Assembly: GCA_951406725.2 (NCBI GenBank)
Contig: OX597815.1
Span: 181,226,001-181,290,000 of the forward strand
Origin: Octopus vulgaris
Lineage: Eukaryota
Direction: 5' to 3'
Length of the DNA stretch: 64,000 nt
The position numbers and the translations under genes are program-made. The notes under the pieces are model-generated. The model saw nothing but the letters and a program-made list of their open reading frames with translations. It was not told the DNA's origin and did not search any database. Positions 6,810 through 61,470 of this stretch are shown in pieces. Position 1 is the first letter of the stretch. Each line of letters opens with the position of its first letter.

Positions 6810-7209
6810 TAAATAATGAGGGTAGAATTTGATATCGATCAATTAACATCAATTTAAGCCAGTGGTCTAGCATATTTTAAAAAATCCGAAGATTTAAAAG
6901 TTATTTTACAATTAATAAGAGGAATGACCACTAAAGTGGATTCCTAATATGCTAATGATAGACGTCAAATCGCGACAGACTACGCTGAAGAGATGCAGAT
7001 ATTTGCATTTTGCAAGTGTTAACAATGAAATCATGATACGTAGGTAATCGTTTTATTTTGTATATTTTCATTTGTCTTGTTCATTTTTGCATTCTGGGGT
7101 TTTTGCTGAGATTTTTCTTGAGAACACACTCTTCGTGGTAAGGCGATTTGACATTTATCTTTAGCATATTAGGAATCCACTTGATTGGTCATTACTCTTA
7201 TTAATTGTA

Positions 7210-7210
<1 letters not shown>
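6810..7210 (+). mobile_element. Short fold-back element (68-bp inverted arms 6906-6973 / 7143-7210) enclosing a hammerhead motif
   Basis: ttacaattaataagaggaatgacc...gacgtcaaatcgc pairs with gcgatttgac...ttattaattgtaa. Flanked by (TA)n. A partial copy lies at 22160-22310. Confidence 0.75.
6980..7043 (+). ncRNA. Type I hammerhead ribozyme-like motif
   Basis: ctacg-CTGAAGA-...-GAAA-tcatga-TA-cgtag: 5-bp stem I and palindromic stem III. Stem II is poorly formed. Confidence 0.55.
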
Positions 7211-7244
<34 letters not shown>

Positions 7245-10058: not shown

Positions 10059-10275
10059 TTCTTTATTGCCCACAAGGGGCTAAACACAGAGGGGACAAAC
10101 AAGGACAGACAAACGGATCAAATCGATTACATCGACCCCAGTGCGTAACTGGTACTTATTTTATGGACCCCGAAAGGCAAAGTCGACCTCGGCTGAATGT
10201 GAACTCATAACGTAACGGCAGACCAAATACTGCTAAGAATTTCGCCCGGCGTGCTAACGATTCTGCCAGCTCACC

Positions 10276-10279
<4 letters not shown>
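10055..10279 (-). mobile_element. SINE family A
   Basis: Full head-core-tail on the minus strand. Confidence 0.9.
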
Positions 10280-10372
<93 letters not shown>

Positions 10373-10378
10373 GTATAT

Positions 10379-11969
<1,591 letters not shown>

Positions 11970-21575: not shown

Positions 21576-22313
21576 ATGAACCAACATTTTTATCGATCAC
21601 CGAGACCCCAGAAACAGATGCTGGACTTTTTCTTCCGCACCTTTAATTTTCTCTGTCGTTTGTACTCAATGCAAGTTGGACCTATTAATACAAACCAACG
21701 GAACAGCTTGCTCGTGAAATTAACGTGCAAGTGTCTGAGCATTCCACATACACGTGTACCCCTAACGTAGTTCCCGAGGAGATTCAGCGTGACACAGAAT
21801 ACGACAAATCTAGCACTTTGAAATACAGGACTGGAGCAACGTGAAAAAGAGTGTTTTGCTCAAGGACATAACGCATCGCCGAGAATTGAACTCACGACCT
21901 TATAATCGTGAGTCGAATGCCCTAACCACTAAGCCACGTGCCTTCACATTTATATAGCAATCTATATACTCATAGATAAAAATTCATCATCTGAAATGTT
22001 CTATCTTCTGCTTCCTCGCCTTTTGTATATTTTGTATTTGATGCTTAATATATTTAATATATTTGATGTGTCAAATTTGTTTTATCCGTATTATTGCATC
22101 TCTCTCTCTCCCTCCCTCCCTCCCTCCCTCCCTCTCTTCCTCTCCCTCCCCGCCTCTCTCTTTTTATTTCGTATATTTTCATTTGCCTTGCTCATTTTTA
22201 CATTCTGGCGTTTTGGTGAAATTTTTCTTGAGAATACACTCTTCGTGGTAAAGCGATTTGACGTCTCTCCCTAGCATATTAGGAATCCACTTTGGTGATC
22301 ATTCCTTTTAATT

Positions 22314-22773
<460 letters not shown>

Positions 22774-26691: not shown

Positions 26692-27090
26692 TTTTTACTG
26701 TTTATATTTTTGTACTGTCGTTACTGCCCTGTTTTTTTTACCATTTTTTACCCCACTGCGAAAAGATCTCAGAATTTTAATTGATTTGCTTTTCGCAGGA
26801 AGGAAAATTTCTTGTCGAAGATATGTCTCGCTTTTATCCTTCGAAACGTAGAGTAGATGAAACCTTAGCGACTGAAGAAGGGGTTTTTTCGTTGTGTTAA
26901 TTGTCCTGTACTCCATTTTTTGTTGTTTTAAAAAAAATGTCCAGTTCCTTTGGTTTGTGTCTATGTTTTCGTTTCTCTTTGTGTTCGACGTCCCTTTGGT
27001 GTCCTGTACTCATATATGCGTGTATATGTACATGTAGAGGTAGGTACGTACATATATGTTTATATATGTGCATATGTTTCATTTCATTTA
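26690..27090 (-). repeat. Family E
   Basis: Reverse complement of the 61000-61470 copy. Confidence 0.85.
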
Positions 27091-27120
<30 letters not shown>

Positions 27121-27121
<1 letters not shown>

Positions 27122-28140
27122 GACTGTAAATATTGACTTCACACAAACACGTTGCTTCCTGATACAGGCACAAGGCCAGCAGAACTATAAATATTGAAAA
27201 TTGTACCCACACACGCACACATATATATACGCGCGCGCGCCCCAACATACATATAAACACACACACTCACACGCGCACTCAGGCTGGTCAGTAGACGTCA
27301 TGTGGATATTTTAACACACACACACACACACACTCACACGCGCACACATACATAGCTCTTCCTATCCTAAACGAACTTACTTATGCAGCTCAAATTCAGT
27401 CAAGCGGAAAATACACTCCTTAACTACGCGCTAAAAAGCTATTTAAAATATCCACATGACGTCTACTGACCAGCCTGAACAATAAGAATTTTCAACAATA
27501 AGAGTTTTCGAAAACTCTTATTGTTGAAAATTATTGTTGTTCAGGCTGGTCAGTAGACGTCATGTGAATATTTTAACACACACACACACACACACACACT
27601 CACACGCGCACACATACATACATATAGCTCTTCCTATCCTAAACGAACTTACTTATGCAGCTCAAATTCAGTCAAGCGGAAAATACACTCCTTAACTACG
27701 CGCTAAAAAGCTATTTAAAATATCCACATGACATCTACTGACCAGCCTGAACAATAAGAATTTTCAACAATAAGAGTTTTCGAAAACTCTTATTGTTGAA
27801 AATTCTTATTGTTCAGGCTGGTCAGTAGACGTCATGTGGATATTTTAAATAGCTTTTTAGCGCGTAGTTAGTGAGTGTATTTTCCGCTTGACTGAATTTG
27901 AGCTGCATAAGTAAGTTCGTTTAGGACAGGAAGAGCTATATGTATGTATGTGTGTGCGCGTGTGAGTGTATGTGTGTGTGTGTGTGTGTGTGTGTTTATA
28001 TGTATGTTGGGGCGCGCGCGCGTGTATATATGTGTGCGTGTGTGGGTACAATTTTCAATATTTATAGTTCTGCTGGCCTTGTGCCTGTATCGGGAAGCAA
28101 CGTGTTTGTGTGAAGTCAATATTTACAGTCATTACAGTCA
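27121..28140. repeat. Nested palindromic fold-back built from the Penelope 3' region seen at 9330-9690
   Basis: Outer arms tgactgtaaatattgacttcac / gtgaagtcaatatttacagtca. Turn-arounds at aagagttttcgaaaactctt (~27509 and ~27781). Confidence 0.88.
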
Positions 28141-28868
28141 CTTGACCTAATCTGACCTAAACAACAACAGCAACAACCAAATCTATAACAAGTAGGTATC
28201 ACGATAACTTAAGTGATTACTTTAACATTCATTACTATACAACTAACAACTAACTCTATTTAGAATAGAAGCGTGGCTGTGTGGTAAGAAGCTTGCTCCC
28301 CAACTACATGGAAAAAAGTCAAGGTAGAAAATGCTAAAATAATTTTATAAAAATCATTTCAGAACCGGTTTCAGTCATTGAAACTTTTTCAACTGTAAGT
28401 ATGGAAAACAATTAAATTTTGGAAAAATTAAATGAAAAGTTTAAAAAAAATATATTTGCATATTATTCAAATACAAGGGACATTTTCCTTGTTTCTTCCT
28501 GTCTCTATCTCTCTTGTTTACTCTTGGGAGTTCGTAATCGTAAACAAGAGTAAACAAGAGAGACAGAAACTTTTAATTTAATTTTCCCAAAATTTAATTG
28601 TTTTCCATACTTACAGTTGAAAAAGTTTCAATGACTGAAACCGGTACTAAAATGTTTTTATAAAATTATTTTAGCATTTTCTACCTTGACTTTTTCCCAT
28701 GTAGTTGGGAAGCAAGCTTCTTACCACACAGCCACGTCTCTATTCTAAATAGAGTTAGTTGTTAGTTGTATAGTAATGCATGTTAAAGTAATCACTTAAG
28801 TTATCGTGATACCTACTTGTTATAGATTTGGTTGTTGCTGTTGTTATTTAGGTAAGATTAGGTCAAGT
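28140..28868. repeat. ~300-bp-arm inverted repeat containing a decayed hammerhead and ~170 bp of duplicated flanking DNA
   Basis: acttgacctaatct...28441 mirrors 28568...agattaggtcaagt. ttgaaaa-agt..act-GAAAC-cg-GTA at 28617-28646. A SINE B head fragment is present in both arms. Confidence 0.9.
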
Positions 28869-31475: not shown

Positions 31476-32109
31476 TTTGTCGTTTGTGTCAGTATCTGTC
31501 CTCCCACCAACGTTTGACAACTGATGCTGGAGTCCCCGTCACTTTGCGGTTCGGGTAAAAAGAGTCCGATAGAATAAGTACTAGGCTTACAAAGAATAAT
31601 TCCTGGGGTCGATTTATTCGACTAAAGGTGGTGCTCCAACATGGCCGCAGTCACATGTCTGAAACAATTAAAAGAGTAAAAGAGTACAGTATTGTTTTGC
31701 TTCGCGGATTTTCACCTATCGCGGGTGTTCTGGAACGTAACCCCCATGGTAGTTGAGGGATTTCTTTAATGGCTTTTGTCCAAGCACATCTCATTGTTTT
31801 TGTTTCAAACTGAGCAAAATTGAGGATTATAGTTAATTGCATCGGTTCCAAAACTTTTACCCTATAAACCATTTGCGAAAAAGAATCATAATTTTCCCTT
31901 TGTAGTGTTTGTCTAAATCAACCAAATATAGTGGGATCGTAAACAGGTCCATATTATATATATATATATAGAGGATTATCCTCAGCATAAGTTAAAAAAT
32001 ATAACACTACTAGGAAATAAATATAGTGTCTAGTAGAATCTACTAGATTACCGGATATTTAAAATATAGTGTTGCTGGTGGGATGTACAATGGCAATAGT
32101 TTTGTCAGT

Positions 32110-32189
32110 GGTCCGGAAATCTATCGATACGTAATTTTGGGGTTAGTAGCCCGCGCTCTTAAACACTACGCCATATGGTCCCCGGGCAT
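32110..32189 (-). mobile_element. tRNA-like head of the same family as 45012-45085 (B-box decayed)
   Basis: Minus strand catatggcgtagtgtttaagagcgcgggctactaaccccaaaatt. Confidence 0.7.
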
Positions 32190-32399
32190 ATATTTCAAAG
32201 GGCCAGTCTTGTCACACTCTGCGTCACGCTGAATCTCCTCGAGAACTACGTTAAAGGTACACGTGTCTGTGGAGTACTCAGTCACTTGCACATTAATTTC
32301 ACGAACAACTTCTTCCGTTGATCGGGGCAACTGGAACCCTCGTCGTCGTAACCGACGGAGTATCGTTGCAGCAGCAGCAGTAGTATATATATATATGTG

Positions 32400-32608
32400 A
32401 TCTCTTGAGCACCACCAGCAAAAAAATTTTTTCCCTCTGTCTTCCCTTCTCGGGATCTTTCCTTCTCCTTTGTTTCCGACGAAGAGCTCCGCTCGAAACG
32501 TTAAACCCTCCTTCCCTTCTTTCCTGAGCGTCAAATAATACTTTAATTGTTCCACGTCCTCGCGTTGCTGTTTTTTTTTTCTGTGTTTTCTTGTTTGGAT
32601 TAACTATA
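32400..32608 (+). mobile_element. Second copy of the ~215-bp hammerhead element (HHR 32472-32506)
   Basis: gtttccgacgaagagctccgctcgaaacgttaaac. Confidence 0.75.
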
Positions 32609-32749
32609 TATATATATAATGAGGGAGATAAATTGAATATTAATTTAATTAATATCAATTTAAAACCAGTAGCCTAGGATATAAAAAGTCTGAAAAATCA
32701 GAAAAAATGTCAATACATGTGTATGTATATATATACATGTATATGTATG

Positions 32750-44020: not shown

Positions 44021-44071
<51 letters not shown>

Positions 44072-44076
<5 letters not shown>

Positions 44077-44276
44077 ATCCAAACATGAAAGCACAAAAAA
44101 CACAACAACGCGAGGACGTGGAACAAATATAGTATTATTGGACGCTCAGGAAAGAAGGAAAGAAGGAGTGTTTATCGTTTCGAGCGGAGCTCTTCGTCGG
44201 AAACATAGAAAGAGGAAAGATCCAGAGAAGGGAAGACAGAGAAAAAAAAATCGCCAACGGTACACACGCGGTCAGA
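44072..44276 (-). mobile_element. Third copy of the ~215-bp hammerhead element (HHR 44170-44204)
   Basis: Plus strand gtttatcgtttcgagcggagctcttcgtcggaaac. Confidence 0.75.
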
Positions 44277-44317
44277 TTTTGAATGTATATATGTATATAT
44301 ATATACATATATGTGCA

Positions 44318-44647: not shown

Positions 44648-44826
44648 ACAGACACACAGACACACAGACACATACACACATGTATAAAAAAGAATGCTAT
44701 ATTCTGGAACCGCCTAAGTGCGCTGTTCGAAACAAATAAAAATAAAGCAGTTCTATATTTAAGAGATGAGGAATTATTTACATTATTTACATTCGACGGA
44801 TATTTGTCCTCATCTTGTTTGTTGTT

Positions 44827-44872
44827 AACACAACGTTTCGGCTGATATACTCTCCAGCCTTCATCAGGTGTC
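44827..44872 (-). ncRNA. Minimal type I hammerhead ribozyme, intact core (mirror copy 45186-45231 has C3>G)
   Basis: Minus strand gacac-CTGATGA-a-ggctg-(10 nt)-cagcc-GAAAC-GTT-gtgtt. Confidence 0.8.
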
Positions 44873-44946
44873 TTGGGAAAATTTCGAACCTGGGTTCTCA
44901 TTCCTAAGGTATTTTTCGATGTTGTTATTATTATTATTATTATTAC

Positions 44947-45005
<59 letters not shown>

Positions 45006-45011
45006 GCCCAT

Positions 45012-45082
45012 GGGCATATGGCGTAGTGGCTAAGAGCGCAGACTACTAACCCTAAGATTCCGAGTTCGATTCCAGGCAGTGA

Positions 45083-45085
<3 letters not shown>
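45012..45085 (+). other. tRNA-derived Pol III head (pseudo-tRNA; loop CT-ACT-AA, resembles tRNA-Ile(AAT))
   Basis: A and B boxes at tRNA spacing. Acceptor and T stems are imperfect, so it is not called a functional tRNA. Confidence 0.75.
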
Positions 45086-45131
<46 letters not shown>

Positions 45132-45356
45132 AACAACATCGAAAAATACCTTCGGAATGAGAATCCAGGTTCGAGATTTCCCCAAGACACGTGATGAAGG
45201 CTGGAGGGTATATCAGCCGAAACGTTGTGTTAACAATAAACAAGATGAGGACAAATATCCATCAAATGTAAATAACGATAAAGGTTTGGTTTGATGAAGA
45301 TTTAACTGTTATTTCAAACATTTCTAATGCCTACTGATTGGCTACTTATATGCTTG

Positions 45357-51972: not shown

Positions 51973-53604
51973 TGGTAAAACGGTAAGATAACAAAAGAAA
52001 GAAAGAGACCTCAATATTATGTAAATAGAGGAAATTTATCTATACAATAATATGTTACATTACTCGATAGTCAAGATAAAACTCTGAGTTTCAGATGCCG
52101 AAGTGGAAATCCACAACACCATCTCTTCGGTTATCTGGCTATTTGAAAACGCTATGAAAAAATACCGTTATACAAAGGGAAATTACTGTGTTATAACTCT
52201 GCTTGCCTGCGTACTTATACATCGCTCGCATTTTTCGTCATAAAAATTATATAAAAATACATGAAAAATATATAAAAAATATATAAAAATATAAAAATAT
52301 ATAAAATCTTCTTGGGACATAACATAGAAAGCATGTTCTATCTGTTTTCTTTAGGGGACCAAAAACGTAACAGAAATTTAGTCATATGTGGGCATGATCC
52401 GAAAAGTTCTGTCCTTGTGTTTAGACATGTAGTAGGGTCTAAGCTGCTTTTCCAGATAAGCCATCTCTCCATGTCGCATAGACCGCACCTTCCGCTGCCG
52501 TTGGAAGACCAAATATGATTAGATGATTGTGTCGCTTTTCTTTTGTTCCAGTGCCTAAAGCTCAAAGTGTGGTTATTGAACCTGGCCTTGAAGTTACCCT
52601 CTGTAAGGCCCACGTATTTCTTCGTCGAAACGGTGTCTTTAGTGGTTATAGAGTTTACGGTAGCTTCATATATAATGGTCTTGGACATGCAAGCTCCATT
52701 TAGCGGGCACAATTCTTTATTCCTGCATTAACAGCTGTTTTCTTGTGTTTTTTGTATGTTATGTTTGATTATGTTTTTAAAATTGGTAGTGGAACTAAAA
52801 CTAATTTTTAAATTGTGTCTATTGAAGAGTTTCCTATAAGTATGGTTAACTGGAAAATGTCTATCTATCAGCGCTAGGAAATATTTACCTATATTGAAGG
52901 CCACCTCGGGTGAGTAAACCAGATGACCTTCCTATTTCTATTATTCCTTTTCATTACTGTTGGGCGTATATTAGTATATACTAATGGGTGTATATTTTAT
53001 TTTTTCGCTAAAACCACTATCTTTTAAAGCCTTATTACAAACTGGGGCAACGCTATTGAAGATGTCCTTATCAGAGGAGAGGCTAGAAATCCTCTTACTA
53101 ATATTTTTAACTAAATTTTTGAATACTATAGGGGGATGACATGAACCTACATTAATATAACTTAGTCTATCATTGGGCTTCCTATAAGGCTTATAAATAT
53201 TCTTATTAAGATCTAAGGAAACGTCTAAGAAATTGACAACCGTCAGGTAAGTATCTATAGTTATACTAAGTCCGAAGTATTTCATTAACTGGATAATATC
53301 CTTCCTAAAACGATCTTGCGCTGGTCCATTTGTATTAGCTGTTAAGGCGAGGGCATCATCTTTGTAGATGGCGAAATGTACGTTAGGGAATGTCTTACCT
53401 AAGGTATCTAGGAGAAAAAGTCCAATTAGATCGCAGATGCCTGCCCCATCATATGAACCCATGCTCACATCGAAAGCGCCCTCTGTGTCGGTGTTTTTTA
53501 CCCACTTTGCGTTCTCACTGAAAGTAAGAGATGGTGTTGTGGATTTCCACTTCGGCATCTGAATCTCAGAGTTTTATCTTGACTATCGAGTAATGTAACA
53601 TATT

Positions 53605-53612
<8 letters not shown>
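51973..53612 (-). mobile_element. 5'-truncated Penelope-like retroelement: RT fragment, Cys-rich linker, GIY-YIG endonuclease, 3' pLTR with HHR, inverted partial pLTR at the 5' end
   Basis: FDVSMGSYDGA.ICDLIGL, IYKDDAL, VNFLDVSLDL..YKPYRKP; CRNKELCPLNGAC; IIYEATV..KYVGLTEG.FKARFNNH. 52040-52127 mirrors 53526-53612. Flanked by (TA)n; stops and frameshifts present. Confidence 0.93.
52074..52136 (-). ncRNA. pLTR hammerhead ribozyme motif (U4>C variant)
   Basis: agataa-CCGAAGA-gatg...catc-t-GAAA-ctcagag-TT-ttatct. Confidence 0.72.
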
Positions 53613-53664
<52 letters not shown>

Positions 53665-60153: not shown

Positions 60154-60960
60154 CATACACCACATATAGAGACAGACTCACATACAAACGGACACAAACA
60201 CACCGACTCACACATAAAGATAAAGATATATATATTGTTCCTTGGTTTGTGTCTATGTTTTTCGTCTCTCTATGTGTTCGACGTCTTTTTGGTGTCCTGT
60301 ACACATATATGCGTGTATATGTACATGTAGAGGTAGGTACGTACATATATGTTTATATATATGCATATATTTTATTAACATATATATATATATATATATG
60401 CATAGACACACACATCGACATTACCCAGTCAAACTCCATCCCAGCTAATTATTTACAATTTATAATTTTAATAATATTTTGGGTTTCGTTTTCCATAACT
60501 TCCTTCATGTTTTTGTAACAATCATCTGTTGAATACTTAGATAATAATGATGATACTTAAGATAAATATTTAACTATTTACATACCAACAAGAACTAAGC
60601 AGCATTGTTGTATAGTTGTATAGGATGAAAATACTAACAGTAACATATTCTTTCTTTTACTTTCATTTGTTAGACTGCGGTCAAGCTGGGGTACCGCCTC
60701 GAAGGAACTTAGTTGAACAAGTTGAACCCAGTACTATATATATGTATATATATAATGTACCAGGTTGAGTAAAAAGTAAGCAATATTTTGAACTATGAGA
60801 AATTTGTACCGGATTTTGGCAGAGTTTTGAATTTTTTTAAACATATATTTGCAGTTGTTTGATAATGCAGACATAGACTTTCCCAGATGCATCAATAAAT
60901 GAACATTGATATTTTTTTTTCACTGCTGTTTCAATAATCTGAAATGGAACTGTGAAAGCG

Positions 60961-61003: not shown

Positions 61004-61470
61004 GAACAAACTTACTGAGAAATGGATGTGTGCGTTCTGTCGTGTAATAACAAAGTAATAAATAAAACATATGCATATATACATACATATATGTACGTAC
61101 CTACATCTACATGTATATATACATGCATATATGGGTACAGGACACCAAAAAACGTCGAACACAATGAGAAACGAAAACATAAACACAAAACCAAGGAACT
61201 GGACATTTTTCTTAAACAACGAAAAAATAGAGTACAGGACAAATAACACAAGGAAAATTCCCCTTCTTCAGCTATGGTTTCATCTACTCTGCGTTTCGAA
61301 GGTGAAGGCGAGACGCAACTTCGATTGAAACTTCCCTTCCCGCGAAAAGCAAATTAAATAAAATTTGAGATCTTTTTGCGGAGGGGTAAAAATGGTAATA
61401 AAAACAGGACAGTAACGACTGTACAAAATATAAACAGTAAAAGACAGGACAAGGAGAATAACAGTAACAC
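61000..61470 (+). repeat. Family E, long copy
   Basis: Match to 17441 and 26690. Confidence 0.87.

Follow-up and report, generated by a model that had tools for sequence, protein, structure and literature searches.

An octopus repeat that is probably a SINE-like parasite using Penelope rather than LINE enzymes, with a presumed helper and a presumed Pol III transcript

In the available text of two reports, insertions of Penelope-like elements (PLEs) typically show an inverted copy at the 5' side and an extension of 30–40 nt on one end (PMC8557442; PMC8969392), and most of these insertions are described as 5'-truncated with such an inverted copy (PMC8557442). The hammerhead ribozymes of PLEs belong to a minimal type, with a core of the form CUGANGA and GAAA-N-N-UH, an extra base between positions 9 and 10.1, a G10.1-C11.1 pair, a palindromic 15.2-16.2 pair and a short helix I of 4–5 bp; they are reported to be inactive as monomers and weak as dimers, and dual minimal hammerheads lying on opposite strands, 100–700 bp apart, have already been described for these elements (PMC4209133). 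For the PLE of the anole it was reported that two positions within a stem-loop 3' of the hammerhead serve as start sites of reverse transcription, and that the tail is the stretch between both sites; the main template is the uncut RNA, and a C3G change kills the cleavage by the hammerhead but not the insertion (PMC11167929). Non-autonomous derivatives of PLEs are already known or have been proposed, i.e., the retrozymes and MRC1.

The tRNA-derived octopus SINEs OK, OR1 and OR2 were reportedly the subject of work by Ohshima and Okada in 1994. SINEs are defined by their LINE partner (PMC3531059), and OR1 and OR2 are cited as CORE SINEs (PMC4824008, PMC4758252). For Octopus vulgaris, 893 recently active unclassified SINE families and 6.83% of Penelope-like DNA have been reported, together with a list of 190 Penelope-like families (PMC13282606); the supplement to that report makes no mention of hammerheads. 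In a literature search that covered few subscription papers, no family with a tRNA head and a PLE tail was found, either in cephalopods or elsewhere; a repeat as abundant as the one described here very probably sits already in Dfam, Repbase, SINEBase or the O. vulgaris library under some label.

The first-pass annotation of the window (the whole stretch of 64 kb of O. vulgaris DNA that was analysed) had described a tRNA-like head followed by (AAT)n and by an arm with a hammerhead, as well as an upstream duplicate of the tract and the arm in inverted orientation, joined at a small palindrome. The features recognised at this locus, together with a second copy of the head, are the following:

44748–44782, minus strand: one-sided extension of the left arm, probably the PLE tail; the outer boundary is an estimate
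44783–44927, minus strand: left inverted arm, PLE pLTR-like, 3' end outward; matches the right arm at 136 of 145 nt
44827–44872, minus strand: minimal type I hammerhead with an intact core; predicted cut between 44832 and 44831
44928–45001, minus strand: left copy of the (AAT)n tract, about 26 units with one interruption, as read from the letters
45002–45019, no strand: palindrome of 18 nt, the fold-back centre; 45002–45009 is the remnant of a left inverted head
45012–45086, plus strand: tRNA-like head with a 7-nt acceptor-like start, A box and B box, without cloverleaf
45087–45129, plus strand: internal (AAT)n tract of 14 units, as read from the letters
45131–45275, plus strand: right arm, resembling a PLE pLTR; the family ends near 45275, from the drop in contig depth
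45186–45231, plus strand: minimal hammerhead with C3>G at 45191; predicted cut at 45226/45227
32103–32192, minus strand: second, more decayed copy of the head, 82% over 61 nt; the alignment reaches about 32103

The inverted duplication was borne out, given that 44783–44971 and 45087–45275 are 94% complementary over 189 nt, with microsatellite tracts of unequal length (about 26 units on the left versus 14 on the right); the palindrome at the junction is also present and, with its 18 nt, is slightly longer than had been claimed. Without the microsatellite, the two arms (44783–44927 and 45131–45275) show 9 mismatches per 145 nt (93.8% alike), which are too many for an assembly duplication. The left arm continues past 44783 into the extension, and the right arm has no such extension. 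Positions 44772–44764 of the extension are a perfect 9-nt complement to 44815–44807 of the arm, a match equalled by 90 of 3610 control tiles, and the 9-bp stem between extension and arm encloses the short end within its loop. No target-site duplication was detected, since the flanks share 6-mers at most, and the six frames of the unit yield repeat-derived peptides only. Within the arm, the stretch 45163–45182 resembles a tRNA T-arm/B box and has short words in common with the head; it may promote head-to-arm deletions, or mark a second, older tRNA piece.

The two boxes of the head lie where they had been placed, the A box at 45019–45029 and the B box at 45063/45064–45073, with a spacer of 33–34 nt, and they agree at 11/11 and 10/11 positions, respectively, with the SINE promoter consensus quoted in the available text of PMC8969392. 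This pattern of A and B boxes occurs twice in the window, in this head and at 21936 on the minus strand, where it belongs to the tRNA-type head of another SINE family, and it did not occur in 100 dinucleotide shuffles; the head starts 7 nt 5' of the A box, in the fashion of a tRNA. Because ARAGORN called no tRNA gene at the head, Rfam gave no tRNA match at the gathering score nor at E values up to 10, and the head folds no better than its shuffles (z 0.64), with no cloverleaf, it may be regarded as tRNA-like by its boxes alone. The second head, at 32103–32192, keeps the same short 5' hairpin remnant and carries neither (AAT)n nor arm. The plus strand of 45012–45345 lacks a T4 stop, an observation of little weight since 271 of 1276 control tiles also lack it.

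The abundance of the repeat was evaluated by comparing positions 44994–45345 with the contigs of four public runs, three of DNA type and one guessed to be RNA and possibly DNA, in which 20,444, 15,926, 16,664 and 3,173 records were placed; the comparison omits the (AAT)n stretch 45080–45142, and the uncovered bins are an effect of the method. Some part of 45003–45330 was found in 21 of the 24 listed runs, which fall under four organism labels, in addition to two metagenome rows that were left out, namely RNA runs of insect metagenomes in which the share of words was small. In the three DNA-type runs, the depth was 16,500–21,800 times that of the flank bin for the arm and 1,900–3,500 times for the head, values that are not copy numbers, and the arm was 5.8–8.5 times deeper than the head. 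The family has thousands of copies at least, and both the depth profile and the varied flanks show that these are interspersed. The limits of the family are given by an approximately 10-fold rise of the head depth across 45003–45012 and by the collapse after 45281, where depth drops from millions to hundreds; in the four runs, 642, 678, 478 and 60 contigs depart from the reference at 45275, and the sequence that they carry 3' of this position is that of the first 9 nt of the extension.

A peptide derived from the arm is 92% identical, over 61% of the query, to the beginning of the annotated Octopus sinensis protein XP_029651560.2 (LOC115224785), a cysteine-rich, receptor-like host protein whose N-terminus is read from a copy of the arm across the hammerhead; this N-terminus is either an exonised repeat or an annotation error. 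Searches with a frame spanning arm and head gave no true protein match, the two matches obtained being low-complexity chance matches. Likewise, exact-pattern scans of viral, metagenome and prokaryote collections gave no matches apart from two loci (L001 and L002) that have a 21-nt pattern alone in common and are otherwise unrelated.

The insertion is very probably of PLE type. An inverted copy on the 5' side, with the two 3' ends facing away from the centre, is seen at the locus itself, and elsewhere in strand-change joints and in head-to-head loose ends. In 4/4 runs the loose ends located 5' of 45002 correspond to the reverse complement of the head (74, 63, 42 and 14 contigs; 24 rows listed of 819), with an agreement of 0.51–0.66, that is, a mixture in which this form is the commonest; heads thus often stand head-to-head about one and the same centre of the palindrome. 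For the locus, the best reading is a head-to-head palindrome with the original order arm-(AAT)n-head / head-(AAT)n-arm, from which the left head has disappeared but for 8 nt. On balance, we favour the reading that it represents one insertion of a high-copy non-autonomous SINE-like retroelement, copied from a Pol III template by the RT/GIY-YIG protein of an autonomous PLE. The unit has a size of about 265–300 nt and comprises the head, the (AAT)n spacer, and a PLE pLTR-type arm with a minimal hammerhead and a 3' stem-loop; its end structure points to a PLE rather than a LINE. The octopus repeat is probably, then, a SINE-like parasite that uses Penelope rather than LINE enzymes, with a presumed helper and a presumed Pol III transcript, and it is somewhat more likely than not that the short Pol III RNA is the template. 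It is a more tentative proposal that this is a true Pol III SINE family, present in several octopus-type genomes and hitherto undescribed, mobilised by PLEs and not by LINEs, in which self-priming at the hairpin gives rise to the head-to-head palindromes.

In tRNA genes, transcription by Pol III begins a few bases before the first base of the tRNA. Judging from its boxes, transcription of the octopus unit would likewise start a few bases upstream of this position and read through the body, which has no T4 stop; the transcript would include the short hairpin, so that the end of the cDNA could fold back. If the chemistry resembles that reported for the anole element (PMC11167929), the PLE protein would bind the uncut RNA and nick AT-rich DNA, and reverse transcription would start internally at one of two positions about the stem-loop that follows the hammerhead; these two start sites would account for the short end (45275/44783) and the tailed end observed in the anatomy. 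The 5' end of the cDNA might then fold back on the short hairpin at the start of the head and prime the inverted copy, the expected product being a head-to-head palindrome with both 3' ends outward, like the palindromes seen elsewhere as loose ends. Comparison with other copies indicates that the left head of this locus then disappeared down to a remnant of 8 nt, and that the right ribozyme acquired its C3 mutation afterwards.

The main rival of this account, which we consider unlikely, proposes that the head lies in the interior of the terminal repeat or 3' UTR of a longer PLE, autonomous or not, that captured a tRNA or SINE fragment, and that it is transcribed by Pol II within the long RNA; the short copies and the head-to-head palindromes would result from a tendency of reverse transcription to fold back at the hairpin just upstream of the head. 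A different constant sequence was indeed present upstream of 45005 in 38 contigs of run X5 and 7 of run X15 (agreement 0.6 and 0.8), in a class that leaves just a 5-bp hairpin, and it points to a multi-copy longer parent; this parent may be the source of a Pol III daughter, or a long PLE end may simply have captured the head, with fold-back at a hairpin hot spot. The greater depth of the arm, the lack of a cloverleaf in the head and the reported frequency of 5'-truncated PLE insertions with an inverted copy (PMC8557442, available text) are also in favour of a longer parent. Nevertheless, the break point falls where a tRNA would start, 7 nt 5' of an intact A box to which a well-spaced B box is added, and the head-to-head form is the larger class among the loose ends listed; moreover, the motif upstream of 45005 has no match in the 64-kb window at up to 3 mismatches, and a nearby upstream Pol III start would equally explain a multi-copy parent with short daughters. 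If the longer parent were real, the element would be a PLE whose terminal repeat had taken up a tRNA promoter, with Cassandra, Helenus and Ajax as counterparts among the LTR elements, a less striking and still notable situation.

A second rival, distinctly less probable, is chance nesting, in which an ordinary tRNA SINE, mobilised by a LINE and ending in an (AAT)n tail, inserted at this locus alone into the (AAT)n of a head-less palindrome of PLE arms. Both repeats are abundant, so that some of them should meet by chance, the head copy at 32192–32103 has no arm, and no contig spans the (AAT)n stretch omitted from the comparison; intact copies with head, AAT and arm were seen at no other locus. 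On the other hand, the 15 joints listed of a total of 56 include 8, each with the depth of a single copy, in which the head leads into the arm with order and strand unchanged, and three of which recur in a second run; these 8 joints are deleted copies at separate loci. Three other listed joints connect the head to the inverted arm, and four lie within the arm. The sides of the joints measure 20–37 nt, and the proportion of 8 colinear versus 3 opposite does not differ significantly from 50:50 (p 0.11). In the RNA-type run, X15, one loose end also places head letters before arm position 45184. In addition, head-to-head palindromes, which are a product of PLE type and not of LINE type, appear in 4/4 runs, and the palindrome centre of the whole structure falls at the 5' end of the head. 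Head and arm are therefore likely to form one unit throughout the family, and many arms may travel without a head, given that the arm is deeper than the head. The linkage that the first-pass annotation had proposed thus stands as regards order and strand at other loci (8 of the 15 listed joints), and falls short of significance against chance orientation; the claim of a non-coding, high-copy unit of head, (AAT)n and hammerhead arm with the insertion marks of Penelope is supported. Inside the arm, the joints from 45223 to 45192/45193 and from 45259 to 45158/45186 reach about 5–30 times the single-copy depth, and these multi-copy joints may represent tandem or inverted arm subfamilies.

With respect to the ribozymes, the one on the minus strand has a helix I of 5 bp, the CUGAUGA motif at 44867–44861, an extra A, a helix II of 5–6 bp and GAAA, followed by a loop-less palindromic 15.2-16.2 pair and a GUU triplet. 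It has all the traits of the minimal PLE type (core, base at 9.1, G10.1-C11.1, palindromic 15.2-16.2 and short helix I), and it is the sole match to the strict descriptor in the 64-kb window, with none in 30 shuffles, in accordance with the intact CUGAUGA/GAAA core that had been attributed to 44827–44872. The Infernal check that had been suggested did not corroborate it, given that the Rfam models gave no hammerhead match at the gathering score nor at E values up to 10. The plus-strand copy departs from the minimal-type core at C3, where a G is indeed found at 45191. In the three DNA-type runs this position is a C in 96–99% of the depth, and C3>G is hence a private mutation of this plus copy. 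Among the listed common variants, the core of the hammerhead is affected only at N7 (18–29%) and at CpG sites (8–16%), as expected if the master copies kept the ribozyme core and the inserted copies decay.

It had also been claimed that this is a retrozyme with a self-cleaving tail. According to this alternative, the two hammerheads would excise the unit, which would be circularised and re-inserted from the circular RNA. A type I hammerhead with a core conserved in the family would fit, the two go-back or strand-change joints within the arm, of multi-copy depth, might be tandem forms, and retrozymes have themselves been proposed as PLE derivatives (bioRxiv 10.64898/2026.07.22.740005, in its available part). 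Against this, the two ribozymes lie on opposite strands, one on each, so no transcript carries both and cleavage can release no monomer from the locus; the arm is not repeated in direct orientation anywhere in the window, the locus shows no head-to-tail tandem, and units with at least two hammerheads per strand in head-to-tail order are absent here. Furthermore, the shared end lies 49 nt, and the end of the extension about 84 nt, beyond the predicted cut site; the element therefore runs at least 49 nt past the cut, cleavage does not make its 3' end, and we are confident that the cut site is not the 3' end of the element. No joint of the cut site to the head appears among the 15 listed of 56, with none listed for the RNA-type run, and minimal hammerheads are reported to be inactive as monomers (PMC4209133). 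These results lend no support to the self-cleaving tail or to the retrozyme, the latter being very improbable; the bracketing by two inverted hammerheads holds as structure and loses its distinctiveness, because it is an ordinary feature of PLEs in the available text of PMC4209133. On the favoured reading, the hammerhead would be inherited from a PLE end and would cut only as a dimer or with the help of a protein, without defining the end of the element. Finally, that the inverted arm is an assembly artefact is hardly credible: palindromes and microsatellites are difficult to assemble (PMC8557442, available text), and yet the arms differ at 9 of their 145 positions, the tracts are of unequal length and a single arm carries the extension, and the joints of head to inverted arm recur in independent runs.

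Regarding the possible helper of the SINE-like unit, a 5'-truncated, decayed Penelope-like element with a piece of RT and a GIY-YIG domain lies at 52034–53619 on the minus strand, beside (TA)n. The GIY-YIG match of this remnant (52338–53573) has a Pfam E value of 0.0028, below the cut-off, and by eye the remnant is close to the Hydra-1_Obim peptide, of the Hydra clade. It also has an inverted copy of 94 nt of its 3' end (97%) and an extension on one side, and the presence of the same inverted-end layout indicates that this layout is ordinary in this genome. As a partner, the Hydra-type remnant was rejected, since the likeness of its end to the arm is weak (reached in 3 of 300 base shuffles, with 53 of 2490 window tiles scoring as well). 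A search for longer proteins with the arm frame found no autonomous partner with RT and GIY-YIG; the single match among its three candidates was the model of a host gene whose beginning lies in a copy of the arm, and not a PLE ORF. The four arm motifs gave no matches in the text of the supplement to PMC8557442, which is partial and whose line breaks can hide matches.

Other repeats share the window. A non-coding repeat of about 210 nt that ends at (TA)n is present at 22511–22716 (plus strand), 32427–32611 (plus strand) and 44066–44278 (minus strand), with a minimal hammerhead in which C replaces U4 in 3/3 copies, two of them passing the relaxed descriptor; it is probably another non-autonomous PLE family with a candidate ribozyme. 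Inverted arms of 72 nt (6902–6973 and 7143–7214, 90%), one of them beside (TA)n, surround a decayed CUGAAGA core at about 6987, and this structure (6902–7214) is likely a third insertion of PLE type. Two adjacent long palindromes, one of about 460 nt with nested internal inversions and the other of 303 nt (96%), occupy 27120–28868 and belong to the fold-back or MITE type. A further repeat family, with inverted copies and ending at (TA)n, lies at 60237–60376 / 61061–61199 and at 27000–27110, and a fragment of a LINE-type reverse transcriptase is found at 10203–11837 on the plus strand (Pfam RVT_1, E 1.9e-26).

Should the favoured reading be true, the definition of SINEs would be widened beyond parasites of LINEs, and part of the large unclassified SINE and Penelope fraction of octopus genomes would be reclassified. 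The unit would also be a natural minimal substrate of 300 nt to find out which RNA features the PLE protein needs and how the inverted ends of PLEs originate, as well as a short template for asking why the hammerhead is kept.

A comparison with the systems described so far, within the available text of the sources cited, delimits the nature of this unit. The closest in layout are the alpha repeats of schistosomes, Sm-alpha and Sj-alpha, short non-coding repeats in which a type I hammerhead comes after a Pol III promoter, the same order as for the candidate promoter of the octopus unit; they form head-to-tail tandems that are cut into monomers by a canonical hammerhead (PMC6765202), whereas the octopus unit has a minimal hammerhead without a helix III loop, stands in a head-to-head palindrome and not in tandem, bears a tail of PLE type and extends past the cut. 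The non-LTR retrozymes of animals are also non-coding, carry hammerheads and are proposed users of PLE enzymes; they are defined by a circular RNA and, unlike the octopus unit, by a tandem arrangement in which the same strand bears two or more hammerheads, and their available descriptions do not mention a tRNA head (PMC7229834; bioRxiv 10.64898/2026.07.22.740005). With the tRNA-derived SINEs, as defined in SINEBase (PMC3531059), the unit shares a size below 700 bp (about 265–300 nt), a tRNA-type head with 5' A and B boxes, recognised by these boxes and with no tRNA called by ARAGORN or Rfam, the non-coding character and a very high copy number; it differs in that its 3' part looks derived from a PLE and not from a LINE, and in that its simple repeat is internal. 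MRC1, one of the non-autonomous Chlamys PLEs, is likewise non-coding and likewise forms insertions of PLE type, and it shares the 3' end of an autonomous PLE; this element, however, is green algal and mostly devoid of a hammerhead, and no Pol III head is reported for it in the available text (PMC8557442).

The closest resemblance in end structure is with the units of endonuclease-positive PLEs (PMC4209133; PMC8557442; PMC11167929, available parts), which share with the octopus repeat a minimal type I hammerhead, an inverted copy whose 3' ends face outward, an end located 3' of the ribozyme and AT-rich surroundings; they carry an extension of 30–40 nt on one end, to which the extension of the left arm, with its estimated outer boundary, probably corresponds. 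The stem-loop in which reverse transcription starts in the anole PLE (PMC11167929) is comparable to the 9-bp stem of extension and arm that holds the short end in its loop. In contrast to these units, the octopus repeat has no ORF, and a tRNA-derived candidate Pol III promoter occupies its 5' end, at the centre of the palindrome, a head of which the available descriptions of these units make no mention. The unit functions in the manner of a non-autonomous PLE that carries a SINE head, and is classed neither as a retrozyme nor as a repeat of the Sm-alpha type or a canonical SINE; the inverted copy, the one-sided extension and the minimal hammerhead are published hallmarks of PLEs, and the unusual feature is the tRNA head.
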